A DNA stretch of 64,000 nucleotides from an uncultured Armatimonadetes bacterium (GCA_963711155.1 CAVQDB010000004.1:336486-400485), one strand, 5' to 3'. Positions 12,310 through 47,502 are shown, counted from the first letter of the stretch. The notes: generated from the sequence alone by a model not told the origin. A program made the numbers and translations.

Positions 12310-12344
12310 CATTGATTACTTACCGGGGAAGCGGGGAAGTGTCG
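12310..12344 (-). promoter_or_regulatory. Copy A of a 5-copy conserved promoter-like motif
   Basis: Minus strand reads CGACACTT-N12-GGTAAGTAATCAATG, directly upstream of gpD. See the other copies at 30399, 39862, 44332 and 47467. Confidence 0.55.
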
Positions 12345-12518
12345 AGGACTGCCACTAAGCATGTGAAAACTGGACTGCGGACTCGCAGATGCATCTTGGG
12401 ACAGAGAGGAGCGATTGGCCAATACAGGTGGGGGTATGGAAATGGGTGACGTGAGACTTGCTGAGCGTCAGGCCAAAACGTAGGCAGTTAGCGTTTCGGC
12501 TTGCAGGAATCACCGTGT

Positions 12519-13843
12519 CTACGCTTCGGGATAGAGACGGACAGCAAGCCCAAGGTGTGCGCCAACATACTCGACAAAGTCTTTGGTCGGCATATCAAAT
12601 CCACCGTCCGTGACGATAAGCAATTCATTAACACCGGCGTTCTTGGCCGGTCCCTCAATGATCTCAATCAACGGCCTGGCATTTGTCCCATCGTCCAAAG
12701 CTAGACCGGTATAGGTGTCGTGGCCGTCCTGCAACCATTTATGGAAGCCGGTCATGCACTGTGCGCTACCAGCGAAGCAAACAAAATCGTCTATGCATCC
12801 ATGGTCTTCGCCTTTTTCCAGAAGCTCGGATCGCAATGAACTGAGAGCACTAGGCAGAGAGTCACTGAAGCTACTTGACAAATCGATACAGACCAACCTG
12901 TTCAGTAGTGACGGGTGGAGTTGCTCCAGCTTGTCCAGTAGCAATCCAAGCCCTCCACCGCCCGGATGGCAGTCGTAAATGAGAAACGCACCTCGGCGAA
13001 TTCAACTGGATTTTCCAGCCCAAGGCCACTCTTGTCGAAATACTCAGCAACAAGAGAGAGGTCAGCCCCAAAGCTAGTCTTGTAACGCTCTGCTGTTTCC
13101 TTGTAGTCAGATAGCGTATACCCGCCCGCTTCGGAATGCTTGGGGTCCAGACTCCACATAGCTTTCGCGTCAACAGATGGGCCGGACAGCAGCGATATGT
13201 CGGGCATGTTTCCCGACGACCTATAGAGCTGATAGAAGAGGTAGTAGCTTTGGCTGCGCCCGTGGACTACAGCGCACGGTTGTGAGCTTCGAGCGTACGA
13301 AAGCGACCACTGAAAAGGCAGACTGCCTCCACGTTGTTGTGTTTGGAGCAACTCGACTTTGTATCCTTGTCTGCGCAGCCATTGAACGACCGTTAGAAGC
13401 ATCCATATTTCGTACAACTGCGGACGAGTTGACCAGATGTCCAAACGGATAAGGTCCTCCAGCTGGCTCTCTCGTTGAGCTAGGTTGCCGAGCAAGAAGG
13501 CATCTTCAAGGAATCTGTCAAGCAGAGATGGAAACGCCTTCGAAGTGCATCTGGCGATATCAGACTCGGAAAGCTCCCCGCGATCAGCATGTCGTGAGCC
13601 GCGACGACCTGTGCGCAAGGGCTTGTTTAAGGTTCTTTCCGCAACACTGACGAGCTCGTGAGCATCACGAAGGATGAGAGTGAGCATTTGTGGTCGTAAT
13701 CCGGTCGGAATGGCCTCGATCTTATCTATCAGTGCAGCAACCTTGCTGACCAGATGAGCGAGAACACTCTGGGCGCGTTCATCGGATCTATCTCTGTAGT
13801 CGTAGACCGTTTCGCGTCGTATATACGAATCCACGACGTTCAA
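12519..13843 (-). CDS. PD-(D/E)xK nuclease-like (McrC/DUF2357-like core) fused to a vWA domain; 1 apparent frameshift near 12950
   Basis: Nuclease-like core: LYEIWMLLTVVQWLRRQGYKVEL...GNMPDISLL...AMWSLDPKHSE (PD...D-x-K). After the frameshift, ORF 12519..12944 shows a vWA MIDAS-like signature: VCIDLSSSFS (DxSxS) ... LLIVTDGGFD. The region is visibly lower in GC than its neighbours. Confidence 0.5.
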
Positions 13844-13912
13844 ACGTCGGCTAGAGCGGGGCTCCGCATCTTCAAGAAGACTCCTCCATATCGGACGGAA
13901 GCTCCGCCAGCG

Positions 13913-14305
13913 TTAATGAACGTCCTGTAGCTCCGCATCCAACCTCGACCAATCACTTACTGATGCCATATCGCTGAGCAGGCCGATTGTTTGTTGAGAT
14001 AGATCGAGATCCACTGCGTCTCCGCTCGCGGTAGGGTCTTTCAGCATGAAGATGCACCCTGTAGTTCTAATTGCTATGCCGAAAGACTCGAGCGCGGAGA
14101 ACACCTGCTGCAGCATCCGTAGGGTTGGGTCGGCGGCAATCAGCACCAGCCGAACCACCTCATATCTTGGGAGGGAAGAGAGTGTATCTGCGAGTTGTGT
14201 CGGATTGGAGTCGTCAGGTAGCCCGCACGCAGCAGCGATTCTCTGGCGCTCGTGTGAGTCGATCAATGACAAAAACCTGCGAGTTGAGATTGCGAAATCG
14301 TCCAT
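13913..14305 (-). CDS. Hypothetical protein (first gene of the low-GC cassette)
   Basis: Intact 130-aa ORF (MDDFAISTRRFLSLIDSHERQRIAAACGLPDDSNP...). No family recognised. Confidence 0.4.
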   Translation of the reverse strand: MDDFAISTRRFLSLIDSHERQRIAAACGLPDDSNPTQLADTLSSLPRYEVVRLVLIAADPTLRMLQQVFSALESFGIAIRTTGCIFMLKDPTASGDAVDLDLSQQTIGLLSDMASVSDWSRLDAELQDVH

Positions 14306-14525
14306 CTAGTAGGCGACCATATAGGTTGATAGTCCGGTGCAATTGACAGCTAGCCGTTGAGTCCCGACATGAGTCAATGACGACTCCTCCGCCACTGGGC
14401 AAGCCGAATCCTTCATTCTGCACTCTGCGTTTGCGTCGGGCCTGTGCCGAGGCAAGCCAAGAATTTGCGATTCTCGACCCACGCATTCCCGTATGCAACA
14501 CCTGCTTAGTCCGTGTCCCACGTGT

Positions 14526-14816
14526 TCACACGAGCAGGCGCATTTGCACGAGTTCGGCCGACGCTACTCTCAGCACCATCCCCACCTCCAACTCCAGCGG
14601 AGAGAAGATGTCGTTGTAGTCGCAGATCACCCACCACAGATCAGCGCGGCCGAGGTAGCGGTAGGCGATGAGGTCGATCCGGTCGCCCTCGACCACGGTG
14701 TGGAAGACATCATCGGGCTGAGGCGAGGTGTCGATGCGAGGCCGCGTGCCCAGGAACTCCTCCTGCCCATCGACGTAGAGCACGCACGTTGCGTATCTGG
14801 AATCCGGCCCTATCAT
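14526..14816 (-). CDS. Tail protein X (P2 gpX-like, LysM-like fold)
   Basis: ...HTVVEGDRIDLIAYRYLGRADLWWVICDYNDIFSPLELEVGMVLRV matches the Phage_tail_X/LysM pattern. An ATGA overlap joins it to the upstream gene. Confidence 0.75.
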   Translation of the reverse strand: MIGPDSRYATCVLYVDGQEEFLGTRPRIDTSPQPDDVFHTVVEGDRIDLIAYRYLGRADLWWVICDYNDIFSPLELEVGMVLRVASAELVQMRLLV

Positions 14817-15285
14817 CTGCGCACCTCCGTGTAGCTGACTGACTTCTGCACTATCTCCTCAAGCGTCATCTCCACCTCCGCGTGCTGCGGCAGAAGGCTT
14901 CTCGGAGTCGAACATGTGGAAGTAGCGCGCCCGCACCTGGCGCACGATGCAGAGCACGCCCGGATAGAGGTCGCCGAGGAAGAAGAGCACCTTGTGCGGG
15001 GCGTTCTTGAGCATGGTCTTCGTCGTGCTGCGGGTAGAGAAGCGACTGCAGCCAGGCAACTTTCTGCTTCACAGGTCCCTTGAAGAACACGAGCTTGAAC
15101 GCGATCTTCCGCGCTTCGCCCGCCACATACTGATACCTCGGGTGGCTCATGCCCGGAATCTTTATCGTGGCGAAGTCGGTGCTCTTCTCGTCGGATACCT
15201 CGTCCGGGTTGTACTGGAACTCCAGCGACTCGCGCGTCACCACATCCACGAGATAGCCGGTCGTCTTCTTCAGATCGAGGCGCAA
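14813..15285 (-). CDS. Contractile-tail tube-like / tube-initiator protein (partner of gpX); 2 apparent frameshifts (near 15060 and 14890)
   Basis: TTG start at 15285. (M)RLDLKKTTGYLVDVVTRESLEFQYNPDEVSDEKSTDFATIKIPGMSHPRYQYVAGEARKIAFKLVFF... follows the FQ(Y/F)NP pattern seen in CIS tube-family proteins encoded before LysM/X genes. Confidence 0.5.
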
Positions 15286-15616
15286 AGCCGCACCTCCCGG
15301 ATCTCGACGATGCGCTTCCCAAGCAGCCGGGCGTGCGCGATCTCCCGGCGCATGCCATCTGAATATCCCATCGCCGACGTAGACCCAGACCTCATCGCAG
15401 ACTTCCATGAACCGCAGACCCAGGGATATTCCGAGCTCGCGCTGCGCCGGATCGTCGTCATCAAGGAACCTGCGTGTAGAGCAGGTGCGGAGCGAACGGC
15501 GCATATCCGGCCTCGACAGCCATCCGGCAGAGAGCCAGCGCGGTCTCGACGTTGCGCTCGATGTCACCGACGTATCTGCTGCAGATGAAGACCCGCCTCG
15601 CCTCAGGCCGACTCAT
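15270..15616 (-). CDS. Nucleoside 2-deoxyribosyltransferase-like fold protein (DUF4406/DUF1937-like); 2 apparent frameshifts
   Basis: MSRPEARRVFICSRYVGDIERNVETALALCRMAVEAGYAPFAPHLLYT...LDDDDPAQRELGISLGLRFMEVCDEVWVYVGDGISDGMRREIAHARLLGKRIVEI was reconstructed from three frames. The pattern recalls NDT-like phage proteins. Confidence 0.45.
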
Positions 15617-18600: not shown

Positions 18601-19086
18601 CGTATCCCGTGGTGAATGTTTCCACCATCTCCTGCGTGGTGGCTTTCGTGGCCTTGGCCGTAAGCGCCGCCATTGCCGCGAACGTGCCGACCGCCTGATC
18701 CGAGAGGCTGGCAAGAGCGGACTTCACATCGTAGGCAGCGGATATGAACTCGGCTTTGTTGGTGCCGGCCCACTGGTTGGTGAACGACTCGGCGGCGTCC
18801 TCCATTGCCCGGAAGTCCTTGACGCCAACTGATGCCAGTTCGCCCAGAGCCTTCTGCGTGGCGGCAGTAGACGCGACAAGACCGGCAGGAATCGCCAGAA
18901 GAGCAAGGCCTGCGCCGGTCATCATCGTGCCTTTCTCGATGAGACCGAGGTTGCGGGTCATGTTGTCACTGGCGGCTTCGACCGACGCATCCAGAGTCTG
19001 CATCGATGACTGGATACGCGTGGCGTTCTGAGTGAACGCGTCCTTGAGGCTGAAACGATTATGCCGAGGCCGAGGTCACTCATCAT
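15603..19086 (-). CDS. Tail tape measure protein; at least 5 apparent frameshifts
   Basis: The N-terminal third (...FTNQWAGTNKAEFISAAYDVKSAL...IAILGQLQTTMPGSEAGTLYKAFMMQ...LKKAFGSDEAVRFLL) is a canonical TMP core. It is followed by a long Ala/Gly/Ser-rich TM-like and helical region. An internal duplication, LRRLLPFSDAQEGPLSTLT(A/R)SGAA, occurs at about 16037-16130 and 16591-16685. The gene sits directly after the chaperone gene (ATGA overlap at 19083-19086). Confidence 0.9.
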
Positions 19087-19259
19087 TTCCGATTGCGCTC
19101 CAGTTCCTGGCGCTCGAAGTCGAGCTGCCGCTCAAGTGCGTCGACGAAATCCTGCCGCGTCCTGATCGGCAGCTTTGCGACCTCGGCATACTCCCAGTGA
19201 AGCCCTCCGTAGGCGAGGAAGAAGGCGTCCTTCAGGAGCGAACTCCGGGGAATAAAAAA
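19083..19259 (-). CDS. -1 frameshift extension of the tail assembly chaperone (gpGT/E+E' analogue)
   Basis: The -1 frame is open from 19310 to 19083 and encodes ...FFIPRSSLLKDAFFLAYGGLHWEYAEVAKLPIRTRQDFVDALERQLDFERQELERNRK. It ends in an ATGA overlap with the TMP start. Confidence 0.6.
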   Translation of the reverse strand, partial: FFIPRSSLLKDAFFLAYGGLHWEYAEVAKLPIRTRQDFVDALERQLDFERQELERNRK

Positions 19260-20380: not shown

Positions 20381-20501
20381 AGTTTCACCTCTTGCGGTTT
20401 CAGTTGACTGATTCTGTCGTGTGCGATATGCTTATGTCAGATGACTTGCCTGTCCCAACTATGTGGCGCAGGTGTCACGCGCTGGTTTGCCCGAAGCCAC
20501 T

Positions 20502-21138: not shown

Positions 21139-21143
21139 ATAGG

Positions 21144-22991: not shown

Positions 22992-23031
22992 TTGGTTTTT
23001 CCTTTCTTCGAGCTTGCCTGCGGTTCAGGGG

Positions 23032-23271
23032 CTAGCTCGGGCTCTGCGGCTGTTCGCTACTGCTTTCAATGCCCAAAGCATGATCGATCCCTTCGCCGAA
23101 CTTGCCCATCAGCGACACAAGCCCGCGGGCGGCGGCGAGTTGAATCTCCTGGGAGATGCTCTGAGCGAGTATATCCCTGCACTCGCGCGCCGTGAGATGC
23201 AGCCCTTCGCCGTCCGTCGCCAGGTGAAGCGCAAGCGGCTGAAAGAGCAGGTTCTTGATGCTTATCTTCAT
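23032..23271 (-). CDS. Small hypothetical protein
   Basis: MKISIKNLLFQPLALHLATDGEGLHLTARECRDILAQSISQEIQLAAARGLVSLMGKFGE... lies on the same strand as the operon. The overlapping plus-strand ORF 23014..23334 looks like a shadow ORF. Confidence 0.35.
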   Translation of the reverse strand: MKISIKNLLFQPLALHLATDGEGLHLTARECRDILAQSISQEIQLAAARGLVSLMGKFGEGIDHALGIESSSEQPQSPS

Positions 23272-29164: not shown

Positions 29165-30357
29165 GTTCTCCTCGATGCGCAGGGTCACTTCCGGTGAATG
29201 GCCGTCCTCATCTGCCTGAGCAGACTTGCCGCCCTTGGTGCAGACGAACAGCCGCTCTATGGCAACCGAGTTCTCGCAATGCTTCGCGGAAATGCGATAC
29301 TGGTGCTCCTGCGACTGCATCCGGCTGGACATGCCGTTTGCCGAGATGATGTCTTTCATCTCCCCCTCGTTCGGGTAGGCGTGGTCGCGGTAGGAGATGA
29401 GCCAGTTCGGGATGTGCTTCGCGTTGGCGAGGAACGTGCCGAAGAACTCGCCGGCGTTCGCCTTGGTGACCGTCTTGTGGTCGGTCTCGTAGTGGTGGGT
29501 CTTGGAGTCCGCCACGATCTTCAGCCCGTCCCAGTAGGTCATCAGGCCTTCGACGAAGTGATAGGCCTTCTCGTAGTTGGTCGTCGAGAACTCGGTCGCG
29601 TAGGGCGGGTCGAAGTAGGCGAGGTCCACCTTGGCATCGGCCAGCAGCGTCGTTCATGTCCTTGCAGGTCGCCTTGCACTCCTTGCCGTTGTCGAAGACG
29701 AGCGCGTTGATGCGCGCGACGTTGTTCGCGAACCGCTCCTTGAACTCGTCGGGGGTGTCCTGCCGCTTGCCGTAATCGGTCGAAGAGGAGAAGTGGCCGA
29801 AGCCGCCTTTGCCGGACATGCACGTCTTGCCGAGGGCGAAGAGCGCGATGTCCTTCTTGAACCCGGAGAGCGCGTCGACGTTCGCGCGGATGGTGTCGAT
29901 GACCTTGTGGACGCCGTCGGCGAAGAAGAGGCCCTTGAAGTTGTCCCGGACGAACGTGCCGGCCTTGGGGTTGTCGGCAAGCAGCGCGTCGAGTTCCTCC
30001 TGGGCTGATGCGAACGCTGCCGTTCTCGATGATGGCCCGGGCGGCGTGGTGGGAGTAGTGCAGCCGGTCGTTGGCGACGACGCGCAGGCCCTTGGTCTTG
30101 TACATATACGCGACGACCGCCGAGCCGCAGAACGCGTCAAGCACGCTCGCGACTCCCTCCGGCGTGTGCTTCCAGATCCAGTCAACGAGCTTCTGCTTCG
30201 AGCCTATGTAGTTGGTGATGTATTTCGGACGCTCATCCGGCGGCAGTTCCTCGGTGACAAGCTCCGCGCCCTGGGCGATAAGGTCTTCCAGGTAGCAGGA
30301 AGCATCCGTCTCCAGCAGGAACGCCAGCCGATCAAGGTCCGTGGCGAAAAGCTCCAT
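29165..30357 (-). CDS. DNA N6-adenine methyltransferase, D12/Dam-like class, copy A; about 2 apparent frameshifts; no in-frame stop before copy B
   Basis: MELFATDLDRLAFLLE...PKYITNYIGSKQKLVDWIWKHTPEGVASVLDAFCGSAVVAYMYKTKGLRVVANDRL... then ...FDNGKECKA... and DLAYFDPPYATEFSTTNYEKAYHFVEGL...WLISYRDHAYP...IERLFVCTKGG. Confidence 0.7.
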
Positions 30358-30398: not shown

Positions 30399-30434
30399 CA
30401 ATGGTTACTTACCGGAGGAAATCAGGAAGTGTAG
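30399..30434 (-). promoter_or_regulatory. Copy B of the conserved promoter-like motif
   Basis: Minus strand reads CTACACTT-N13-GGTAAGTAACCATTG. It lies 41 nt upstream of the methyltransferase A start codon. Confidence 0.55.
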
Positions 30435-30576: not shown

Positions 30577-31209
30577 GTGAGCGTTGATATCGCATCAAGA
30601 ATAGTGCAGCTTATCAAGCTTCCTTTCAGGCATCTGTGGATCATCGCTATCGCGTCCGGTGTGCTCCTGTTCTCGCCAGCGAGGATGCTACACAGATTGA
30701 GAATGGCTGAGTTCGTCGGCGCATATGGCACTTGGGTCGCTGTGGTGTTTCTGCTGTCTGCAGTATCGATTCTCGTGAACTCATTTCACTGGGCTTGGCA
30801 AGCCCGCGCCCGTAGTTCTAAGCGGGCTAGTTTCGAGTTCGGACGGCTGCCGGTCCCTCTCAGGAGGTTGTCGCATCAGGAGAAGGGTGTCCTGCGGGAG
30901 TTCTTCATACAGGGGCAAAATACTTTGCGGCTACCGATTGATAATCCGGCCGTCACGGGCCTTCTGCGAAACGGCATTTTGGTTCAGCTCGATAGCCTCT
31001 GTGAGGGTTCCCTCGCGGGGCTCCTGGCACCGGTGTCTATTGCTGATGGGCTCTCAGACTTATTGGTGGCCAGCCACATTGATCTTCCTTGTGAGCCCGT
31101 CTCCGATGCCGACAGGGACTATGTGCTGAACAATCGTCCGGACTTTCTGCCAGAGATCGAGCATCATAACGAGATCTTCCACACGTCGTGGCGCCGGTCG
31201 ACGTTCTAG
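30577..31209 (+). CDS. SieB-like superinfection-exclusion membrane protein (by resemblance)
   Basis: GTG start after GGGGGAG. There are two N-terminal TM helices (HLWIIAIASGVLLF, WVAVVFLLSAVSILV), then LSHQEKGVLREFFIQGQNTLRLPIDNPAVTGLLRNGILV, which matches my recollection of the SieB family (PF14163) core. Upstream, TTGACA (30513-30518) plus N16 plus TGAAAT forms a promoter-like pair. The region is low in GC. Confidence 0.45.
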   Translation: MSVDIASRIVQLIKLPFRHLWIIAIASGVLLFSPARMLHRLRMAEFVGAYGTWVAVVFLLSAVSILVNSFHWAWQARARSSKRASFEFGRLPVPLRRLSHQEKGVLREFFIQGQNTLRLPIDNPAVTGLLRNGILVQLDSLCEGSLAGLLAPVSIADGLSDLLVASHIDLPCEPVSDADRDYVLNNRPDFLPEIEHHNEIFHTSWRRSTF

Positions 31210-31294
31210 CTGATTCGATTAGAAGCCGCTTAGTCGTGGCAAACCACGTGAGCGGATCTGGTTACGCCCTATTTGCTAAGATGAGAGATCTGAC

Positions 31295-32451
31295 ATGCTT
31301 TTCTGTGCAAGCGAACGCAGAATGATAGTGTTACGTGTGCCAAATCCCAGAGCATACCGACGGGGTCGGCTGGCTCTCTTTGTCACACTGACCCTTCTGA
31401 CAGTCTTGATGTGTGTGCCTAATGTTGAGGCAAGAAATCTGGGTTCGCACGTGGTAACCGACGTTATTGATGGAATGACACTATGCGTTCAGGCCTCGGC
31501 CAAGTCAGACTCATTGGTGTGAGGTCCCCTGCTCAGAGCGACGATATCAGAATGCCAGAGTCTGTGCTCAACAGAGCAGGATCGGTCTTGCAGGTACTGG
31601 CAGTGAAAAGAACTGTAATCGTTGAGACTGACATTCGAGAGAGAGACAACGAAGGGTGTCTACTGGCATACGTATGGCTCGATGATGGTTCATTGCTCAA
31701 TGCTGTCGTGATTAGATCAGGTTATGCGATTGCGATCCCGTGTCCACCCAACATCAAGTATGGATCCAAGCTGCAGAGAATGCAGATTGATGCCATAGAC
31801 CACGGGAGGGGAATATGGGAAGAACCACCGGCTTTGCTGTCCAATCGACCGTTCTGGCCCGTCTTGCCTAAGTCGTGGATGGTGACTATTCCGCTGCTTG
31901 CCGTATCACTGTTGTTGCTGATCAGGACCTATGAACTGATTGGCACGTTGTTGTGGCTTGCATGCAAGAGCAAGACATGCAAAGTGGACTATGACGGGTA
32001 CATCAGAGATTTGCGACTCCAGATGCAGATAGCAAACCAGCCTGTCACTACAAGTGGCGTGCCTACATTTCGTGAGGGGCTGAGAGAAGTTCAGAGGTGG
32101 GCAGGTCGCAGGATTCAGGAACTTGATGCGCGTTACCGTCGACCTGAATCTCGAGTAATGAGATTTGTGAAGAGGACCTGTGGGCAAGCTGGCGCCAATA
32201 TGGCGTATAGGTGGCTTAACTTGATGCTTCTCACAGCAATGCTTGCAGCACTTGTCTCGGACGATTCCGTGATGACGGCGTCGGTGGTGTTCCTGGCTAT
32301 GTTTGCATTTGCTACAGGCGGTCTAGTTCAGATCGCCCATCTGATCGCTTCCCGAATGGTACAGATTCGACCACGCTCGCGACAAAGCCAATGCAGCCAA
32401 TATGTCAGTGCAGATGGGGCTTCCTCCCGAGATGGGAGAAGCGACCGCTAG
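31295..32451 (+). CDS. Exported SNase-fold (thermonuclease-like) domain with degenerate catalytic residues, followed by a multi-TM region; 1 apparent frameshift near 31490
   Basis: Signal-peptide-like N-terminus (RRGRLALFVTLTLLTVLMCVPNVEA). SNase core: HVVTDVIDGMTLCVQ / GLGQVRLIGVRSPAQ...NEGCLLAYVWLDDGSLLNAVVIRSGYAIA...GRGIWE. Compared with staphylococcal nuclease, IDGDT becomes IDGMT, VDTPE becomes VRSPA, and YGRGLAY becomes EGCLLAY. Hydrophobic helices then follow (WMVTIPLLAVSLLLL, LNLMLLTAMLAAL, VVFLAMFAFATGGL). Confidence 0.6.
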
Positions 32452-32773
32452 ACGAAAGGATGTGGTTAGTGAGTTCGTTACGGTGTTCCTCGTCACGTTT
32501 GGAGTCTTGGTTCTAGGCTATGGAGGCATATACGCCGGCCTTAGCAAGGTAGGCATAGGTGGAAGTGCATTTCACGGACTGGCAATCGACCAGAGTCCGT
32601 TTGCTCAGTTGTTGTACTTCAGTATCGTCACGATTGCCACTCTGGGATACGGTGACATCGCACCGTCAAGCTTCTTGGCTAGGCTAGCAGTGTCCTCAGA
32701 AGTCCTGTGCAGCTTCGCGCTAATAGTCTTGCTTGTCGCAGTAGTCTCGTTGACCTCACAAACGGACGAATAG
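32402..32773 (+). CDS. Miniature 2-TM potassium channel pore protein (may be the frameshifted C-terminus of the previous ORF)
   Basis: TM1 FVTVFLVTFGVLVLGYGGIY, pore helix plus selectivity filter LLYFSIVTIATLGYGDIAP (TxGYGD), TM2 LAVSSEVLCSFALIVLLVAVVSL. Confidence 0.75.
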   Translation: MSVQMGLPPEMGEATARRKDVVSEFVTVFLVTFGVLVLGYGGIYAGLSKVGIGGSAFHGLAIDQSPFAQLLYFSIVTIATLGYGDIAPSSFLARLAVSSEVLCSFALIVLLVAVVSLTSQTDE

Positions 32774-38260: not shown

Positions 38261-38271
38261 TGCTTGCGCCC

Positions 38272-39856
38272 TCAGACTCTCTTGTGTTCAAAGAAGCGGC
38301 AGGCGGGGGAGTCGAACGTGGTCTCGGCCTGCGTGACGCCGCACTTGTTCTGCTCGTCACCGAAGAAGCCGCACGAGTCGCACATTTCGATCGCGTAGTG
38401 CAGCGCCGCCTGTGCTTGAGCCGGCTTGTTCTTTGCCGGATCGAGGCCGAGCATCTCCTGCGCGGCTTCGATGCCCATGATCCCGGCCACGACCATATCG
38501 ACAATCGGCTTGACCTGCTTCTCGTCCAGCAGGTCCACGGACTTGCCCTCGCTGCGCCGATGCGCTTCCTCCACATCCGGGTCGAGGTCCATCTTGAGCT
38601 GCAGGCTTGAGCGGCTTATGAGCTTGCGGTCGTATAGCTCGATCAGGAGCTTCTTGAAGTCCACCGCGTCCGTGGGATCGAGGTCGTTGAAGACGAACTG
38701 CACGCTCTTGTCCTGGTGCCCGGACATCTCCAGCCAGTCGGCGAATATCCAGTCGAGGATCGTCCGTCGCCGCGTGCTTTATCTCCCGGATCATGATGAG
38801 CATCTTCTGCATACTCACCGACGCCGTTGCGAAGTTTGGGCCGTCGCCGGCGACGAGTGAGCGCGAAAGACCCAGCGCGACGACGATGTCTTCCTTGACC
38901 TCCCGCACTTTCTCCTCGACGTTGAGGACCTGCCCCTCGGTGCCGTGGGTCTCGACCGTCACGTAGAACGGCACGACCAGGCCGCTCTTGAGGTCCATCT
39001 TGTTGACCATGTCGCGGACCTGTTCGAGCATCTTCTGGTCGGGCATCACCATCTTCTGCCCGTATGCCCCGCCGACTTTGAGGAGCCGGAACGGTGTCGC
39101 CCAGCGCTTCGCGATGGCCTTCTCCGCGCGGCGATAGTCCCGCAGAAGCTCGATGGACTCGAACGCCGGCAGGACCAGGGAGTTACCGCGAGGAGAGAAC
39201 GATGGGGCATCCCACTTGAGGTGCAGAGTCTGCTCGACCGGCAGCTTCAGACCGTCGCCTGTGGCCGGGCTGTCTTCGGGGAATTGCTGCACCTCGACGA
39301 GCTGGCCTTGGGCATACTTCACCTTGATCGAGACCGGGTTCACGCACGTGACTTCCTCGATGTCCTTGCCGTCCTTGGTGTATCGTTTGAACCCGACCGC
39401 GTCGCCCTTGACGAGCAGTTGGAGGATCATGTCCTTCACGAACTCGGAAACATCGAGCCGGTCGGCAAGATCGTTCGCCTCCTCCTTCACGGTGTCATCG
39501 TCGCTGGTGATCTTGATCTCGTCGCCCACCGCGAACGTGCGCCAGGAGTTGATGCAGTTCTTGACCAGCGGCTCCTCGACATAGTACTCCCAGGCTTTCT
39601 TCGCCCGGTCTTCCCAGGTCTTCGGGATCGCGCACTCGTCGGCATGGAGCTTCGCAAAGGTCGACGAGTCCAGCATAGCCGCAGTAGCCAGCGGCGCGAC
39701 GATGATGCCCTGCGCTTCGTTCGCGGCGGTGTCGACAACGCCAGCCGATCTGTTTGCAGTTCTCCTTGGACGGGGCTTTCGACTCTCGCTCTCCACGCTG
39801 ACCTCGATCCTTACGGGGTCGGAGCGCGCACGCGGCGATGTGGCCGCGAGATGCAC
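38272..39856 (-). CDS. Portal protein; 1 apparent frameshift near 38760; start uncertain (alternative ATG at 39676)
   Basis: ...WEDRAKKAWEYYVEEPLVKNCINSWRTFAVGDEIKI...LHLKWDAPSFSPRGNSLVLPAFESIELLRDYRRAEKAIAKRWATPFRLLKVGG...FATASVSMQKMLIMIREIKHAAT / ILDWIFADWLEMSGHQDKSVQFVFNDLD.... The gene order is terL, portal, MuF. The C-terminus carries a Cys cluster, CDSCGFFGDEQNKCGV...PACRFF. Confidence 0.8.
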
Positions 39857-39861
39857 GCTCT

Positions 39862-39897
39862 CACTGATTACTTACCGGGGCCGGCGACGAACTGTAG
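39862..39897 (-). promoter_or_regulatory. Copy C of the conserved promoter-like motif
   Basis: Minus strand reads CTACAGTT-N13-GGTAAGTAATCAGTG, upstream of the portal gene. Confidence 0.55.
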
Positions 39898-40099
39898 GCT
39901 CCGCCGTGTGCTACCTTTACGATGCCGGCAATACTGCCGGGTTTGCTGTTCGTTCACGCTGAGAGCACTGCGGCCACGTCATCATTCCCCGCTCAAAATA
40001 CTGGTATTTACCGAATCATATAAGTAGCACTCCACGTGGCACAAACATGATGGCAGGAGAATGCGGCAAGCGCCCTGACTAAGCGTGGAGGTGGCAAGC

Positions 40100-40336
40100 A
40101 TGAGACGGTTCAATACGATGTGGATTTACGCGGCAGGCGCGACGGCTTCAGCGTTCGTGTTCAGATTCACTGATTGCCCCGACTCGTTCTTCGCCTGCCT
40201 ATCGGTCGCGCTCGCCGTGGATGCCATCACCAGCATGCTGAGGATGTGCGACAGACTGCTCGACCCGCCCGTGGGCATCTTCGTCGCATTCGGCCTGCAC
40301 GGGAATAACTTCAACCATTTGCCGCACATGCCTTGA
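40100..40336 (+). CDS. Small hydrophobic protein, first gene of a 2-gene plus-strand cassette
   Basis: ATG follows GGAGGTGGCAAGC. MRRFNTMWIYAAGATASAFVFRFTDCPDSFFACLSVALAVDAITSMLRMCDRLLDPPVGIFVAFGLHG.... Confidence 0.4.
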   Translation: MRRFNTMWIYAAGATASAFVFRFTDCPDSFFACLSVALAVDAITSMLRMCDRLLDPPVGIFVAFGLHGNNFNHLPHMP

Positions 40337-40409
40337 CTTCACCTGCCGAACAGAGTTTGAATGCACCCCGCGCTTCGGCGCAGACTCGCGACAAAGGAGA
40401 AGATCAGCA

Positions 40410-40724
40410 ATGAAAGACCCGATGGAGTATCAGGGAGTATTAGGGCAGGCAATCGTGGCAAGGCGGGAGAAGCTCGGCTACAGCCGCGATAAGCTCGCCA
40501 GGATCATCGGAGTAGACACGGACTATGTGGCCTTTGTGGAAGACGGCAAGAACGATCTGGAGCTTTCCGAGATGATCGTCATAGCCAGAGCATTGCGCAT
40601 TCCACTATCGACGCTTCTTGCGGTTGCGGAGTCGGGGCTGCCGGAGAACATAGCGAACGCCGATCAGAAGAAAATCGGGTCCGTCAGCACCGGCATCACG
40701 CAGACCGTCTCCTCGCTCACCTGA
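40410..40724 (+). CDS. XRE-family helix-turn-helix regulator
   Basis: LGQAIVARREKLGYSRDKLARIIGVDTDYVAFVEDGKNDLELSEMIVIARALRIPLSTLL is a classic HTH_3 pattern. Its 3' end converges on and overlaps the terL 3' end. Confidence 0.8.
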   Translation: MKDPMEYQGVLGQAIVARREKLGYSRDKLARIIGVDTDYVAFVEDGKNDLELSEMIVIARALRIPLSTLLAVAESGLPENIANADQKKIGSVSTGITQTVSSLT

Positions 40725-42196
40725 TCGAGGCTTCGCTGCTCCCGCACGAGCATCGCGCAGCGGACGGCGTCGATGATGTGGTCGTTGCCTTTGGAGTAGA
40801 TCACGTTGCCGTTCGAGAGCGTGTAGGTGTGGGTCGTGAACTGGTCTTCTATCTCCAGGTCGTCAGAGGGCAGTATCATCTGCCTGCGCTGCAGAGCGCC
40901 ATTGATGAGGCTGGTCATCAGTTCCTTGGTGCGCTTCTTCACCTCCTGGCCTTCACGCACCGCAAGAGTCGTCATGCCGCCGAAGTCGTAGCCGTGCAGC
41001 CGGCCTTCGAGTTGCAGCAGCTTGTACTTGTCGAGCGTCAGGAGTTCCTGCACGACCGCAAGACCGTTCCCGCCGTTGTCCACGCCAATCCCGACCGGCG
41101 TGAAGTACCTCTCCAGCAGGGATATGACTTGGGCGATGTGTGGATAGGACACGTGCTCCAGATGGATGCGCAGGACAAGCTTCACGACCGAGCGATCCCC
41201 GACCTCTATCTCCTGGAACACGACGATCTCCGTCGGGTCGTTCGTGTAGCCCAGGTCGCCGCCTATCCAGAACATGCCGACCTGCGGCATCAGGTTCAGG
41301 AGCATCTCCAGCCGGTCGTATGACTCCTCCTCGGTCTCGCAGTCGCGCAGTTCCTCGCCGGTTATCGTGACCTTCTGATACTCCAGCAGCTCCTGGCGGC
41401 ACAGGTTCAGATGCTCGATGTTGAATGCGCCATAGGAGGGCTTGCCGTGTTCGCCGGCGACCTCGTGCTGCCAGCCGGAAGTGTCACGTCCCCCATAGAA
41501 CTCCAGAAGCTCGCTCTCACGATGATCGGTCCAGTTCGGATTGAGCCACGAGGGCCACCTGAACACTTTGAACTGCGAGGACAGAGTGAGCCGGTAGTAG
41601 GTCGTGTTCCGCAGGCCGTTGGGCGTGGAGTAGATGCGCAGCTTGCCGCCAGCCTTGAGGCACTGCCGCAGCGCCTTCCACGCCTTCTCCGTGAGCCACG
41701 CGCCCTCGTCCACCCAGACGCGATCAACGTGCAGCGACCGAAAAGCGTCGCCGTAGGCTCCGGCAGGTCGGAAGTAGAGGATAGCGCCGTTGGTGAACTC
41801 CACCCGGAAGTAGGGCTTGCGGTGGATCTTGACCTTCCCGTACTTCGTGATAGCGACGCTGGCCATTAGATCGGGATTGGAATCGAGCTGGAACTCCATC
41901 TCCTCGATAAGCGTGTCCAGATGTCCCTGGTGCGGAGCGGCGATAAGCCCCTGTCCTCCGCGAGTCGTGAAGGCAAAGTGCATCGCGTCAGTGGTAAGCA
42001 CGATGCTCTTGCCGACATCGCGGCCGTCGAGGTGGACGATGTTCTTGCTGTCGCAGTGCATGTCCTCGACCTGGTGCGGCCAGTACGATCGGTCGGAACC
42101 GTCCCGGTTGCGCAGATAGGTCTGACCCCACATCACCGGGTCCTGCAGGGAAAGCGCGATCCGCATCTCCTCGGAAGTGACGTTGCTCACTGACAT
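40664..42196 (-). CDS. Terminase large subunit
   Basis: MSVSNVTSEEMRIALSLQDPVMWGQTYLRNRDGSDRSYWPHQVEDMHCDSKNIVHLDGRDVGKSIVL (Walker A-like) ...HVDRVWVDEGAWL (Walker B-like) ...FWIGGDLGYTNDPTEIVV...GIGVDNGGNG... (RNaseH-like nuclease). The ORF is intact. The track ORF extends to 42769, but the upstream part is low-complexity nonsense. Confidence 0.9.
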   Translation of the reverse strand: MSVSNVTSEEMRIALSLQDPVMWGQTYLRNRDGSDRSYWPHQVEDMHCDSKNIVHLDGRDVGKSIVLTTDAMHFAFTTRGGQGLIAAPHQGHLDTLIEEMEFQLDSNPDLMASVAITKYGKVKIHRKPYFRVEFTNGAILYFRPAGAYGDAFRSLHVDRVWVDEGAWLTEKAWKALRQCLKAGGKLRIYSTPNGLRNTTYYRLTLSSQFKVFRWPSWLNPNWTDHRESELLEFYGGRDTSGWQHEVAGEHGKPSYGAFNIEHLNLCRQELLEYQKVTITGEELRDCETEEESYDRLEMLLNLMPQVGMFWIGGDLGYTNDPTEIVVFQEIEVGDRSVVKLVLRIHLEHVSYPHIAQVISLLERYFTPVGIGVDNGGNGLAVVQELLTLDKYKLLQLEGRLHGYDFGGMTTLAVREGQEVKKRTKELMTSLINGALQRRQMILPSDDLEIEDQFTTHTYTLSNGNVIYSKGNDHIIDAVRCAMLVREQRSLDQVSEETVCVMPVLTDPIFF

Positions 42197-42301
42197 GCGC
42201 CTCCGAACATTCTCTGCGAATAATGTGGCATTCGGCCTTGACTTTCTTGCCTGGTCCAAGCGTGAATGTGAATGCAAGACACAATCACTGGAGGTAGTGA
42301 A

Positions 42302-42655
42302 ATGGCAGAAAAGACTCTTCACGAAGCTATCCAGGAACACCTTGAGCACCTCAAGGCCCTGGGCAAGACCGAACGCACGCTTTACACTTACGGGATGGAC
42401 CTGCAGCAGGTCGAGGCGTTCTTCAAACCGGACAGGAAGCTCCGCTCGATCCTGACCCCGCACGTCGGGAGCTTCCTCAAGTCGGACGCGCTGCTGAAGA
42501 TGCGCGGCGACAAGGATCGCTCGGAGATCACGGTCAAGAAGACGATCCGCGTCTTCCGCACGTTCCTCGTGTGGGCAAAGGAGCAGGGCTACATCGACAA
42601 GCTCCCGCTGCCGAAGGACACGCCGATGGGCACGCAGCCTGAAGAACGGGAGTGA
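42302..42655 (+). CDS. Stand-alone phage-integrase N-terminal SAM-like (core-binding) domain protein
   Basis: RBS GGAGGTAGTGAA. MAEKTLHEAIQEHLEHLKALGKTERTLYTYGMDLQQVEAFF...TVKKTIRVFRTFLVWAKEQGYIDKLPLP. No catalytic domain follows in this ORF. Confidence 0.65.
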   Translation: MAEKTLHEAIQEHLEHLKALGKTERTLYTYGMDLQQVEAFFKPDRKLRSILTPHVGSFLKSDALLKMRGDKDRSEITVKKTIRVFRTFLVWAKEQGYIDKLPLPKDTPMGTQPEERE

Positions 42656-42736
42656 GGTGCAGGATGCCGGCGAACACACCGACGATCCGGCTGCTGCCGA
42701 GTAACGATCTCGCAGCAGTCGCTGGAAGCATTTGCC

Positions 42737-43600
42737 GTGAGGCTCCGAGCGCAGGGGCGCTCGGAGCACACGGTCTCTTCGTATCTCAGAGACCTGCGCC
42801 TGTTCGTGCGAGTCCTTAGCGACCAGTATCCCAGCGCGTCACTCCCCGATATCACGCCGGCGATGATAGACGCCGTGCTCACCGATCCATCAGTGACGCA
42901 CTCGCAGGATGGATCGCAGCGCTCGCCGGCGACAATGCATCGCTTCAAGGCGTCGGTCCGTTCGTTCTTTGCATGGGCAGTCGAGGCTGGTCTTGTGGAA
43001 TCCAATCCGGCGAAGTCGATCACCACGAAACGGCTAGCGCGCAGGCCCCCGGAGTTCCTGACCGAGGCCGAGAAGCGCAGGCTCCTCAAGGAGCTTCGCG
43101 ACAGGACGAATCCACTCGCCAAGCGCGACCGCATCATCTTCGAGCTGTTCCTCGGCACCGGCATTCGCCTCTCTGAACTAGTGAACCTGGACATCGACGA
43201 CGTCGACCTCGACGGCAAGCACATTCGCATCCTGGGCAAAGGCAGCATCCCGCAGGTGAAGTTCATCAAGTCGTCCCTGCGCACCGTGCTGCGAGCCTAC
43301 CTCGCTGACCGCCGGCGCACCGCCACTGGCGAATGCCCTGCGCTCTTCCTTTCCTCACGCGGAACACGATTATGCCAGCGGCAGATCGCGCTGCGACTCA
43401 CGCATTGGCTCGGCCGCGCCGGCATCGCCAGGAAGATCACCCCGCACGGCCTGCGGCACACATTCGCGACGCACCTCTACGCGAAGACCTCCGACCTGCT
43501 TCTGGTCAAGCGCGCCCTGGATCACCGCGACATCTCCACGACCGAAATCTACACACACCTCGCCGACGAGGCCCTCGAAGAAGCTATCGAGCGGCTCTAA
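42737..43600 (+). CDS. Tyrosine recombinase / integrase (XerC/D-like)
   Basis: LRAQGRSEHTVSSYLRDLRLF...GTGIRLSELVNLDIDDVDL...ITPHGLRHTFATHLY...LDHRDISTTEIYTHL supplies the R, H-x-x-R and H-Y catalytic residues. The true start may lie upstream (ATG 42664 in another frame). Confidence 0.9.
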   Translation: MRLRAQGRSEHTVSSYLRDLRLFVRVLSDQYPSASLPDITPAMIDAVLTDPSVTHSQDGSQRSPATMHRFKASVRSFFAWAVEAGLVESNPAKSITTKRLARRPPEFLTEAEKRRLLKELRDRTNPLAKRDRIIFELFLGTGIRLSELVNLDIDDVDLDGKHIRILGKGSIPQVKFIKSSLRTVLRAYLADRRRTATGECPALFLSSRGTRLCQRQIALRLTHWLGRAGIARKITPHGLRHTFATHLYAKTSDLLLVKRALDHRDISTTEIYTHLADEALEEAIERL

Positions 43601-44262
43601 TCCGACACCCATTGCTGCGGCTGGAGCATTCGAGCAGATCCCGACTTCGCATAACACGTCTTATCTGAACTCCGATTTCTGCCGAGCCGAGAATCCACGC
43701 GTGGATCGCGCCGGTCGGCAGCAGCCGCGCCGGTGTTATGCGAAGTCATTCCTGCGTTTTCTCCGCGAACTCGCTCGGACTGATCGGATGACTTGGCTTC
43801 TGACTCCCTCAGCTTCTCAAGAAGCGCGGTCGCCCACTCAGCGGGCGTCGTCTCCGGTCCCTTCGGCTCCTCACCCTCCCGCGCTATCTTGGTTGCCTTC
43901 AGGTCCTTGAGGTGGCAGCGGATCATCCGGTCCAGCTTCTCGGCCGCATCCCAGTCGCCCGCCAACTGCGCTCGCCCCAGCTTCAGGAAGTAGACCGCCA
44001 CCAACTCCACCTGCATGAAGTCCGAGCTCTTGTTGAACACGAAGTCCTCGTGCAGTTGGGCAATGATGGCGGCGAAGAGTGGCCGCTCTTCTTCCGAGAG
44101 AAAGCGATCCGCGTAGATGCCGTGCCGAAGGGCGTTCGTGTTATTCTCTGGCGCGCCAGGACCCTGTTTGACCTCGGCGTTCCTGTGCCAGCGCTCGAGG
44201 CGCTTGGTATCCTCCGAGCCTACGCCCGATGATGGATCGTGGATGTGTTCTGAGTCGACCAT
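43597..44262 (-). CDS. Possible terminase small subunit-like protein
   Basis: MVDSEHIHDPSSGVGSEDTKRLERWHRNAEVKQGPGAPENNTNALRHGIYADRFLSEEERPLF.... The GAP.(G)N.NAL(K/R)HG.Y motif recurs in proteins annotated as small terminase. It is the first gene after promoter-like copy D. The C-terminal ~50 aa look low-quality, possibly frameshifted. Confidence 0.4.
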   Translation of the reverse strand: MVDSEHIHDPSSGVGSEDTKRLERWHRNAEVKQGPGAPENNTNALRHGIYADRFLSEEERPLFAAIIAQLHEDFVFNKSSDFMQVELVAVYFLKLGRAQLAGDWDAAEKLDRMIRCHLKDLKATKIAREGEEPKGPETTPAEWATALLEKLRESEAKSSDQSERVRGENAGMTSHNTGAAAADRRDPRVDSRLGRNRSSDKTCYAKSGSARMLQPQQWVSD

Positions 44263-44331
44263 AATTGTTTGCGCAGTCCGGAGATGGGCATGGAAGGCGA
44301 ATTTTGCCTTGCATATACGCCGATAGGTTCC

Positions 44332-44367
44332 CACTGATTACTTACCGGCGCATTCCGAGAAGTGTAG
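44332..44367 (-). promoter_or_regulatory. Copy D of the conserved promoter-like motif
   Basis: Minus strand reads CTACACTT-N13-GGTAAGTAATCAGTG, about 70 nt upstream of the ATG at 44262. Confidence 0.55.
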
Positions 44368-44387
44368 TACTTTCGCGTATATGTTTT

Positions 44388-44883
44388 TCAGAAATCGGTT
44401 CGCTTGAGCCAAGGTTGAGGCACGTTCGGGTTATAGAGGCGGTTGGGCTTGCCGTGCTCGTGCAGGTAGACGATCTCGATGTATGCACGCTGTGACCTCT
44501 CCAACCTGCCGAGCGCCTGAAAGGAAGCAGACCAGGCCATACTCCTGTCCATAGGGAAACGGATATCGCCCTCGGTTCTGATAGAGACCCGCTTCAGTCC
44601 ATCCCAACTGCATCGCCTCCTCGCGAATCGCATCCACTTGCGCGACAGCTTCCGGTGCGACGGACAGCGTAGAGGGCAAACAGCCATCTCTTGGAAACAG
44701 ATGCTCAGTCGACGGCGTCGGAGCGCTCGCCTCCTGAAGCTCCTGCATGATCGCCGCCTTGTTCTCGAGCGCCAAGGTGCGGATGTCGTCGGTGATGGCC
44801 GACCTCGGCTCAAGCCAGAGGATGTTCCCCGACCGGACGGATGCCCGAATGCCGTGCTTGGCGAGCGTCTCCAGGTATGGCAT
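44388..44883 (-). CDS. Hypothetical protein downstream of the primase (1 apparent frameshift near 44510)
   Basis: MPYLETLAKHGIRASVRSGNILWLEPRSAITDDIRTLALENKAAIMQEL... then ...QEYGLVCFL / QALGRLERSQRAYIEIVYLHEHGKPNRLYNPNVPQPWLKRTDF. Confidence 0.4.
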
Positions 44884-47277
44884 CAGAACGCCTCCCCGTC
44901 GGACCAGTCCAGGTCGTTCTCAGCCTCACCGGAATCGGCGGGTTGATGATGTTGATCTTGTTGACCTGGTTCATGTAGATTTCTCATGCATGAGGTATTT
45001 GCGCATGAATCGTTTTCCTCATGCGCGCATGAGGAATTCTCATGATCTAGGTCAACAAGGTCAATAAGGTCAACTTGACCTTCAGACCTGCGGTCGGCAA
45101 GTCCCACCCCACGCCACCACTTGTACCCCTTCGCACCAGTATATGTCTCACAGTTGCCGCGCTCGCCCATCCGCAGGCCGAACCAGCGCTGCGACAGTGG
45201 CCTCTCGCCAGCCTGCTCGGCCCACTCGCAGTAAGCCTGGAACAGGTCCTTTGCCGACACACGTGCCTGGGGTTGGAAGACACACGACTCCGAGAGAAAG
45301 CCGCCCAGCACATCCATATCCTGCTGCAGCTTGCCCGTGGCTGCCTTGACCGCCTTTGCCGCAGGCAGAGCATTGCGCTGCCACTCCAGGCAGCCTCTGA
45401 GCACCCAAGCGAGGATTCCGGGATACTCTTCTCGCAGCTTCTCGGGAAGTGTCTTGTCTTTGTATGGACCAACCGGCGAGTCGGGATCATGGAACTCGAC
45501 GGTGAACGGGATCAGCCGAATTCTGCGCCAGATCCCTTTCTCCTGGCCGTGGATGACCGGCACGTGGTTGCACGCCAGCCAGAGCTTGAAGACCGGAATG
45601 AACTCGAAATACTCCTGATAGAGGAACCTTGCCGTTATCGCATCCTGCCCAGTCAGTTCCTTCACGAGTGCCTCTGCCAGCCTCTTGCCGGCGCTGGTCT
45701 CGATGGCCGAGACGAACCGCGCGCCTCTCAGGCGGGCGACGTCGTTGCTTGCGCTGCCCGCCTGCTTCTCGAGGATCGCGTCGGTAGATGTCTTCTGACC
45801 ATAGTCGCCGAAGATGTCGCGCAGGACGTTGACGAATGTGCTCTTGCCGTTGGAGCCGGAGCCGTGCAGGATGAAGAACACCTGCTCCCTGCGTGTCGCC
45901 GGTGAGCGTGTAGCCGCAGGCAGCCTGAACGAAACCGATAAGCTCCTCGTCTTGGTTGAAGATGTCCGCGAGGAACCGTTCCCAAGTGGGGCAGGGTGCG
46001 TCGCTGTCAAACTCGACGGGGCTGAGCTTGGTTATCATGTCCTCGCGTCGGTGGGGTCTGAGCTGACCGGAGCAGAGGTCGAGGGTACCGTTGGTGCAGT
46101 TGAACAACCAGGGATCGGAGTCCATGTCCGAATACAGCACCGGCACGCCGCATTCCGACTGAGCCTGAAGAAGCATCGCAACAACTCGGCCGTTGTTGCC
46201 TGACGCGATGGTATGCTTCTCGAACTCCTTCGCTGCGGCAAGCGCCGCCTTGTCGGCATCTGCTTCCGCCTTCTCGCGAGCTTCCTGGGCACGCACCAGC
46301 ATTGCGTCAATGGTGCGCTTCGCCATCCGCACGACTTCGCCAGTCTGATCCTCAGCCCAATGCCTGCCGTCCCACGTGTACCATCGCCCGCGGTCACAGC
46401 AGTAGCGGATGGAGTCACCGTGAGCTGACACGAGCCGGCGGGCGTTGCCGATGTCGTTGAGCTGTTCACCATCGATGCCGACAGGAGCATCGGGGTCTCC
46501 TCCGGGCATCCAATCGGGCGCTTCACTCACGATCCGGCGAATGTCCTCGGCTGTCCCGCCAGCCTCTATCCAATCCGTCACATCGCCCTTTGGCTGCAGG
46601 TTCGGAAGCTCCACGACCCGAATCCGTGCCGCAAGGCCGTCGAGGCTGGTCGCGACCTTATCGGCATGGCCCCTGCCAGGCAAGTCATTGTCGGGCAGGA
46701 TGACGACGTCCGCGCCGGCGAGCTGCTGGGAATAGGGTTTCAGCCACTTGCCGGCTCCGCCCGGATTGCACGTTGCCGTGAGTCCCAGTCGCTCAAGGGT
46801 CAGTGCGTCCTTCTCGCCCTCGACGACATAAACGATCCGACCTTGGGCGATTGCTGCCTTGACCTGTGGGAGCCGGAAGAGGTATCTCGTTACGCCCTTG
46901 ATGTTCCAGACCCACTTGGTGCCATTCGCCGTGACCTCACGCCGGCGCTGGCTGAAGCCCTTGGGCCGGAATCGCACAACTTGATACGCGAGCTTGCCTT
47001 GAGCGTCGGTGTAGTCGTAGGTGGCGACGATCCTACGCCCTGTGTCAGCGGATGATTGCTGCTGACCGGCAGGGAACAGATTCTGCATCTTGAGGCCGAC
47101 CGCGTGCAGGATGTCCTTGAGCTCACATCCGGCGTGGCAGTGGAGCAGTATCTTGCCGTCTTCCTGAACGCTAATGCTCAGGCTGGCGACCTTATCATCA
47201 TGCGCCGGGCACTTCGCCTGCCAGCCGTTCGGAGTCTTCTTCGCGCCTGGGAATCTGGATAGTACGTCGTCGATCAC
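44883..47277 (-). CDS. Bifunctional DNA primase / helicase (zinc-finger + Toprim + D5_N/P4-type NTPase); 1 apparent frameshift near 45890
   Basis: GTG start after GAGGGTGG. WQAKCPAHDDKVASLSISVQEDGKILLHCHAGC (Zn finger); IVYVVEGEKDALTLERLGL...VVILPDNDLPGRGHA (Toprim); after the frameshift, FFILHGSGSNGKSTFVNVL (Walker A) ...KLWLACNHVP...WRRIRLIPF. Confidence 0.9.
44942..45080. repeat. Iteron/palindrome cluster: candidate replication origin embedded in the primase 3' coding end
   Basis: Left: GTTGATGAT GTTGATCTT GTTGACCTG (44942-44968). Centre: perfect palindromes CTCATGCATGAG (44983-44994) and CCTCATGCGCGCATGAGG (45017-45034), plus a further CTCATG at 45039. Right: GGTCAACAA GGTCAATAA GGTCAACTT GACC (45050-45080), the inverted complement of the left set. 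Confidence 0.6.
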
Positions 47278-47466
47278 GGGTAGCCACCCTCATCAGTGGA
47301 GCAGCTCACCCCACGACTCCTGCAGCCGGCACAGACGAGAGGAAAGGCTCGACACGTTCCGCGAAGATGGGTCGAAAGCAGTTACCACTGCAACCAGAGC
47401 GAACCAAGTGTCGAGCCTCCATTCCGAAAAGTGCTGTGCTGGCGTGCGAGTGGAAGAGGTTCCACT

Positions 47467-47502
47467 CACTGATTACTTACCGCTACAGGGCACGAAGTGT
47501 AG
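47467..47502 (-). promoter_or_regulatory. Copy E of the conserved promoter-like motif
   Basis: Minus strand reads CTACACTT-N13-GGTAAGTAATCAGTG, about 190 nt upstream of the primase start. Confidence 0.55.

Follow-up and report, generated by a model that had tools for sequence, protein, structure and literature searches.

Several lytic phages encode sigma factors that redirect the host core RNA polymerase to a few conserved promoters, distinct from the host consensus, at the heads of phage operons; phiEco32 gp36, phage 7-11, SPO1 gp28 with gp33/34, and T4 gp55 are of this kind. The promoters that phage-encoded sigma factors recognize are, as a rule, well conserved and low in copy number (Guzina and Djordjevic, PMC4331800), and gp28, gp34 and gp55 have been reviewed as essential phage sigma factors (PMC9429907). 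A probable system of this kind is found in a stretch of 64,000 nucleotides (nt) from an uncultured Armatimonadetes bacterium (GCA_963711155.1, CAVQDB010000004.1:336486-400485; hereafter the window, with positions counted from its first letter). According to a crude gene map and family scans, approximately positions 1 to 53,400 of the window are a myovirus-type prophage. Five copies of a bipartite motif stand at the heads of minus-strand operons of this prophage, which also encodes a sigma factor resembling the extracytoplasmic function (ECF) type (50199-50787, plus strand). On sequence evidence, the five sites are probably promoters at which bacterial core RNA polymerase initiates with the ECF-like sigma that the prophage itself encodes, and the system is most likely a further case of a phage sigma and its promoters, from a phage family not described before. 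Unlike the lytic-phage systems, it belongs to a temperate, integrated prophage of an uncultured lineage, the promoter would be bipartite (-35 and -10), the regulon seems to include replication and excision besides late genes, and in most of the family a promoter lies directly behind the sigma gene. The promoters of T4 gp55 and phiEco32 gp36, in comparison, are essentially -10-only.

The consensus of the five copies is C(T/G)ACA(C/G)TT-N12/13-GGTAAGTAA(T/C)CA(A/T/G)TG. A block C-GGTAAGTAA-y-CA-n-TG is invariant in all five, with (c)tACAsTTc 13 nt further upstream (12 in copy A), and conservation is confined to these two boxes, the spacer and flanks being variable. With at most one mismatch allowed, the downstream box GGTAAGTAAYCA has five matches in the window, on the minus strand only (12313, 30402, 39865, 44335 and 47470), where 0.12 would be expected by chance and where none of 100 shuffled sequences had five. 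When both strands were scanned with a position-weight matrix, the downstream boxes of the five sites scored 31-36 bits, and the runner-up, which has no upstream box, less than 8 bits. Relaxed regular expressions recovered no extra bipartite copies from the window, and the motif was found neither on the plus strand, nor before terL, sheath or tube, nor in the flanking non-phage DNA. None of the five copies overlaps a called gene, and all are oriented as the genes downstream, for which the joint chance is about 1e-5, given a non-coding share of about 20%. The sites are thus real, non-random, intergenic and oriented with the genes. An exact-pattern scan of one genome per species returned 14 matches, all single chance ones in low-GC genomes and without the extended block. 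A sequence-only reading of the window had reported five copies (A at 12344-12310 with N12, B-E with N13), all in one orientation at the heads of minus-strand operons, with none on the plus strand or before terL or the tube gene; each of these statements was borne out when the sequence was re-read and scanned, and family scans agreed with its names for the downstream genes (gpD, methyltransferase, portal, terS-like gene and primase). A lone GGTAAATA box, without a -35 partner, is also present at 39995-40039 on the minus strand, between terL and copy C.

The minus-strand genes of the prophage run in the order primase, terS-like, terL, portal, split DNA methyltransferase, sheath (22991-21144), tape measure and gpD-like tail protein, and the copies (all on the minus strand) divide them into blocks. 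Copy E (47467..47502, CTACACTT-N13-GGTAAGTAATCAGTG) precedes the D5/Toprim primase gene (47277-45487) and is divergent from a plus-strand, presumably early operon that starts at 47689; its position is kept in three related loci (L051, L069 and L088; L numbers denote relatives throughout). Copy D (44332..44367), in which both boxes are the same as in copy E, precedes the terS-like gene (44262-43597), which is followed by terL (42679-40664) without a motif copy of its own. Near-identical copies precede terS in L001/L017 and L069. Copy C (39862..39897, CTACAGTT-N13-GGTAAGTAATCAGTG) lies before the portal gene (39796-38357) at the start of the head-gene block, a position that holds variant copies in many portal relatives. 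Copy B (30399..30434, CTACACTT-N13-GGTAAGTAACCATTG) lies before the frameshifted DNA methyltransferase gene (30357-28610) and heads a block that continues through sheath, tube and tape measure. The methyltransferase is preceded by copies in L018, L025, L030, L032, L036 and L049, and by a weaker variant in L017, L041, L023, L033 and L026. Copy A (12310..12344, CGACACTT-N12-GGTAAGTAATCAATG) precedes the gpD-like tail gene (12276-10999; GTG start, ribosome-binding site GAGG) and is at the head of the block of baseplate and tail-fibre genes. Measured to the best-supported start codons, the gaps are 33 (A), 41 (B), 65 (C), 69 (D) and 189 nt (E). As the motif ends in NTG (ATG, TTG or GTG), leaderless mRNAs were also considered; long open reading frames (ORFs) open from this NTG in copies A and D only, and the idea was rejected because both have better-supported starts downstream (the ribosome-binding site for A, the L069 gene call and alignment for D).

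According to the sequence-only reading, the copies mark points where transcription has to restart after a gap or an inserted cassette. Plus-strand cassettes do lie upstream of copies B and C, but relatives without a cassette carry copies too: in L017, the portal copy begins 6 nt past the terL stop codon, with nothing inserted between. The motif sites therefore mark operon starts as a regular feature, beyond any role in restarting transcription.

The proposed reader of the motif is encoded in two frames, with sigma region 2 in one (50199-50486) and the helix-turn-helix of region 4 in the +1 frame (50437-50787). When aligned to its counterpart in the relative L051, the gene shows one surplus base, in GAGGCG[C]CG at about 50436. 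With this base removed, the product has 195 amino acids (aa). It can be aligned over its full length to 105 homologues in the databases, almost all of them also about 195 aa long and labelled ECF or sigma-24 in their sources; the named sources are Chloracidobacterium thermophilum, two Desulfosarcina species, and Planctomycetota, Armatimonadetes and Eisenbacteria metagenome-assembled genomes. The Pfam Sigma70_r2 profile passes its threshold (30.1 bits, threshold 24), the ECF profile TIGR02937 aligns to residues 35-186 over profile positions 27-161 of 165, and the PHROGs match is phrog_1740 ('RNA polymerase sigma factor'). The AlphaFold model (mean predicted local distance difference test score, pLDDT, 76.7) consists of two helical blocks, sigma-2 and sigma-4, joined by a low-confidence linker at residues 84-92. 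Its top PDB matches are sigma factors only, mostly ECF (SigH, SigL, AlgU, RpoE and SigW; best E-value 1.8e-4), with single-domain TM-scores of 0.5-0.58. The repaired protein thus is a two-domain sigma factor, with sigma-2 and sigma-4 only and no region 1.1 or 3, and its length is within the ECF range of about 170-220 aa. A tblastn search with it against 50,697 GenBank phage records gave no match.

In build, the protein is therefore like the cellular ECF factors E. coli RpoE, B. subtilis SigW and M. tuberculosis SigH/SigL, which share its two domains and its length of about 195 aa and are its best fold matches. The two-box layout of the sites, with 15-16 nt between the (G/T)AC and CGGTA cores, fits cellular ECF promoters in geometry but not in the cores themselves. 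ECF-type promoters have an AAC core at -35 and a CGT core at -10, about 16-17 nt apart. The SigW promoter TGAAAC-N16-CGTA is close to the motif in geometry, and the RpoE -10 box GTCAAA is close to the motif core GTAAGT/GTAAAT. Cellular ECF genes differ from the phage gene in their surroundings: no anti-sigma domain was recognized among the proteins neighbouring the phage sigma in family, PHROG or PDB sequence comparisons, and no cognate promoter was found upstream of the sigma gene in the window, where the plus strand has no copy, while in most relatives the promoter is just downstream.

The sites do not fit the sigma-70 consensus of a housekeeping promoter: a scan of 39000-52000 for TTGACA-N16-18-TATAAT (A at position 2 and T at position 6 of the -10 box) found nothing at copies C, D and E, and two possible -10 hexamers in the sequence, GTAAGT and TAAGTA, both agree with the sigma-70 -10 box at two of six positions. 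The earlier opinion that the sites point to a dedicated factor is supported by this result and by the phage-specific variants described below. In two distant prophages, a LexA-like (S24 peptidase) repressor gene is preceded by TTGACC-N17-TATAAT, which overlaps a palindrome, CCTGATATCTATCAGG, that is probably the repressor operator (L072 at about 6140-6175, L071 at about 6020-6060). As L072 is a Chloracidobacterium prophage, this suggests that that host, at least, uses an ordinary consensus. No LexA-like repressor was recognized in the window.

That the sigma and the motif belong together is indicated by the relatives. The sigma on the contig of L001, L017 and L051 is 69% identical to that of the window, and the L069 sigma is 82% identical. 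Both the L051 contig and L069 keep the gene order of the window, with the motif standing in front of primase and of terS; on the L051 contig it precedes the portal as well. Upstream of portals that are 79-90% identical to the window portal there are two-box variants (CCGACACTT...AGTAAATAAC; CCGACGTTC...CCGGTAGATAAC; CAACACTT...GGTAAATATTGA), and the same phages carry this kind of element before the methyltransferase too. For two of the portal relatives, a sigma homologue is found elsewhere on the same contig (L018 with L088, L031 with L076). Counts of repeated 10-mers in the relatives were too noisy for de novo motifs, which were instead looked for at fixed positions, in front of portal, terS and methyltransferase and behind sigma. 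The strongest evidence is that of 42 loci retrieved by the sigma protein alone. In roughly 38 of the 42, a motif of the same build follows the sigma stop codon by 5-25 nt and heads the next operon; it consists of CCGACA or CCGTCA, about 16 nt, GGTAnGT or GGGTAGGT, and then a CAnTAG or CAGTGG stretch. Further copies in sigma-bearing phages precede replication genes or DUF2924-recombinase genes. There are 53 CCGACA-type instances; 51 of them lie between genes, and the median distance to an ORF in the same direction is 90 nt. CCGTCA-type instances number 23, against none in a reversed-sequence control.

The motif accompanies the sigma across host phyla (Chloracidobacterium, Desulfosarcina, Planctomycetota and Armatimonadetes). 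Sigma and motif thus travel together, in matching variants, across a large family of uncultured prophages, in agreement with the sequence-only reading, which had proposed the phage ECF-type sigma at 50199-50787 as the reader. No cultured relative is at hand from which annotation could be transferred: a near-identity search with 20 kb of the window found no match among GenBank phages, the only GenBank phage matched by the portal is Bacillus phage G (23% identity), and no paper on the sigma family or its motif was found in the literature.

Several conserved features surround the sigma gene in the relatives. The first gene after the post-sigma motif encodes a conserved protein of about 104 aa that starts M..KE(I/L)YRY.F (L071-L078, L080-L089, L091-L093, L099, L101 and L104-L114), and in most of the family another conserved protein, of about 110 aa, is encoded ahead of the sigma; homologues of these two flanking proteins were not detectable in the window. 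In the clade with sigmas 45-52% identical to that of the window, the motif heads an operon of a small ORF, DUF2924 and a serine recombinase (L071 2806-2835, L074 380-409, L078 314-343, L092 381-410), so that prophage excision would also fall under control of the sigma. In L020, L022, L033 and L041, with portals 80-90% identical to the window portal, a different element is found about 100-150 nt upstream of the portal, TTGCCGATAACGGC...ATTGCCGTTG..TTGCCGATAA, in which GCCGATAA resembles the sigma-28 -10 box. These four retain a weak version of the studied motif before the methyltransferase, and at one operon head they appear to have swapped one control element for another.

Copies at dispersed positions in one phage have the same -10 variant, and the variants differ among phages: GGTAAGTAAYCA in the window, AGTAAATAAC in L018/L088, GGTAGATAAC in L029-31 and L035, CCGGGTAGTTAACCAATAG twice in L102, and CCGGGTAGGTCTACAG twice in L062. 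Such phage-specific variants argue for a reader that is encoded by the phage rather than by the host. At the -35 box, CCGACA pairs with a region-4 helix PR[G/Y/A/F/Q/S]x[I/V/L]Y, and CCGTCA with PRTTL[H/N]D. A -35 variant that tracks the sigma clade would be expected if the sigma recognizes the box directly, and the pairing is in this sense supporting.

Directly before the sigma gene in the window are two genes for proteins of 409 aa (p409, 47689-48918, plus strand) and 356 aa (p356, 48938-50008, plus strand), for which no family, PHROG or PDB sequence match was found. The p409-p356 pair recurs at the same place in the distant relatives L071, L072, L079, L084, L087, L088, L110 and L121. Both proteins are missing in many phages that have the sigma as well as the motif, and are thus dispensable for the motif; the sigma is the sole regulatory-type protein that is always found with the motif, apart from the integration module, as the serine-recombinase module is likewise always present.

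From the sequence, we infer binding, start sites and timing as follows. On induction, the host RNA polymerase would transcribe the plus-strand operon 47689-53352, including the sigma gene, and the sigma would accumulate. Its region 4 would read the upstream box (C)C(G/T)ACA(C)TT, and its region 2 the downstream box CGGTAAGTAA / CGGTAAGT, with transcription predicted to start a few bases downstream, in the purines of the conserved CAnTG(G/A)G. The minus strand would in this way be turned on in five units: primase; terS-terL; portal and head; methyltransferase, sheath, tube and tape measure; and gpD and baseplate.

A number of findings weigh against promoters read by the phage sigma. The most direct is that the sigma ORF of the window is interrupted by the 1-nt insertion near 50436; if the insertion is real, the prophage would be unable to use the sites by itself. 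Other genes are also split relative to intact homologues. Besides sigma (50430-50440), these are the primase (45487-46010; 596 aa, against 794 aa in L069), the methyltransferase (29542-29630), DUF2924 (51855-51991) and the flanking HsdR gene (62262-62290). Because HsdR, which is not a phage gene, is broken as well, the sigma insertion and the other frameshifts are probably indel errors of the assembly, the alternative being decay of the prophage. The protein differs from cellular ECF sigmas in scoring 39.5 bits against TIGR02937, under the NCBIfam cut-off of 42.9, and is thus a divergent, ECF-like sigma rather than a certified member, and whole-chain TM-scores of its model against solved ECF sigmas are only about 0.3. 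The boxes, too, depart from the cellular pattern: the textbook AAC and CGT signatures are not exact in the (G/T)AC-N15/16-CGGTA cores, the -35 having no AAC, and the conserved downstream block is unusually long for a -10 element. Unlike in most of the sigma family, the sigma gene of the window has no adjacent motif copy. Finally, the pairing of -35 variant and region-4 helix also follows the sigma phylogeny, a confounding factor, and does not hold in L090, L091 and L093; it is therefore supporting evidence and not proof.

Among other explanations, the one that survives best, though unlikely, is that host RNA polymerase with a host sigma transcribes from the sites with the help of a phage DNA-binding activator, the boxes being activator sites, as for P2 Ogr, Mu C, T4 MotA and staphylococcal RinA. 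According to PMC3152322 and PMC3753634, a single phage regulator turns on packaging and morphogenesis from a site just upstream of terS, and the late operons of many temperate phages are controlled in this way. The length of the downstream block, beyond that of a typical -10 box, would suit such an activator, and p409 and p356, as conserved proteins of no recognized family adjoining the sigma, would be candidates. However, the sites have no sigma-70-like -10 or -35, and no dyad or direct-repeat symmetry is conserved across the motif variants. The absence of p409 and p356 from many phages with motif and sigma also speaks against an activator, since only the sigma is constant, the integration module aside, and the spacing of the (G/T)AC and CGGTA cores is that of a two-domain sigma. 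The RinA, ArpU and LtrC families, P2 Ogr and Mu C are activators that depend on a sigma of the host and mostly serve a single promoter or a few; the prophage has a complete two-domain sigma and five probable promoters at dispersed positions, replication genes included. In a non-exhaustive scan, no homologues of these activators were seen among the ORFs scanned.

It is very unlikely that an alternative sigma of the host, for example a host ECF factor, reads the sites while the phage sigma serves another purpose. The frameshift in the window sigma gene would fit such a division. However, the motif follows the phage sigma gene across hosts of different phyla, the variants differ between phages with portals that are 79-90% identical, and the flanking non-phage DNA has no copy.

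The other alternative of the sequence-only reading, that the conserved block acts in RNA as a 5' leader, antitermination or processing signal, was not borne out and is the least probable of the three. Conservation running past the -10-like box into CAnTG(G/A)G would be compatible with it, as would strong hairpins downstream of copies C (z = -4.4) and E (z = -2.0), but the other three leaders fold no better than shuffled sequence, and a conserved 5' hairpin, significant in two of five copies only, was rejected. RNAalifold found no common structure in nine copies with about 60 nt (-0.02 kcal/mol, no covariation), and tRNA and Rfam scans of the window gave no matches. In addition, an upstream box at a fixed spacing has no explanation in RNA, and the distance to the start codon varies between 33 and 189 nt. 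Finally, five internal sites of the same orientation at operon heads are unlike attachment (att) sites.

The plus-strand operon that contains the sigma (47689..53352), presumed to be early, continues from p409 and p356 through sigma to an M15/VanY peptidase (51029-51442), DUF2924 (51526-51855) and a large serine recombinase (51991-53352). A canonical early promoter was not found in the divergent region 47503-47689. To the right of the prophage is a type I restriction-modification locus. The cassette upstream of copy B (30703-32773, plus strand) is of lower G+C and has the look of a moron or defence insert, with genes for a superinfection-exclusion protein (SieB), for an SNase-like nuclease and for a small protein with an ion-channel domain. 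Between terL and copy C (40100-40724, plus strand), there is an XRE-type helix-turn-helix protein (104 aa) together with a 78-aa ORF; a toxin-antitoxin pair is one possible identity, a repressor another. A tyrosine recombinase gene (Phage_integrase and SAM-like domain; 42737-43600, plus strand) is found between terS and terL, at the same place as in L069; as terL has no motif copy of its own, its transcription must cross this gene in antisense. The 5' leader of terS carries a small hairpin at about 44294-44310 on the minus strand (AAGGC-AAAATTC-GCCTT). Its counterpart in relatives is GAGGCG-CGAAA-CGCCTC (upstream of terS in L018, L019, L021, L022 and L041). Behind the hairpin comes CCCATCTCCGG or CCCAACTCCG, and it is kept even where relatives have no motif before terS.

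Because the primase and, in relatives, excision genes carry the motif, the phage sigma would seem to be a master switch of the lytic programme and not a factor for late genes alone. In a broader and tentative view, the sigma and the promoter behind its gene may be the master lytic switch (replication, excision, packaging and morphogenesis) of widespread uncultured temperate phages, with a promoter code of their own that enables moves between host phyla, which may include Acidobacteriota, Planctomycetota, Desulfobacterota and Armatimonadota, and with the variants acting as orthogonal pairs. The natural variants of this code are CCGACA or CCGTCA at -35, and GGTAAGTA, GGGTAGGT or TTTAGGAA at -10; it is in combination with the corresponding region-4 helix changes that they would make up such orthogonal pairs. 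As phage sigmas with promoters of their own are classical, the result is useful rather than surprising. If true, the transcription programme of an uncultured prophage family would be readable from sequence, as one sigma, few promoters and five operons. The family would also supply natural sigma-promoter pairs of differing specificity, like the orthogonal parts of synthetic biology, and with them a mapping of the region-4 helix to the -35 box, with A or T at the third position of CCG[A/T]CA.

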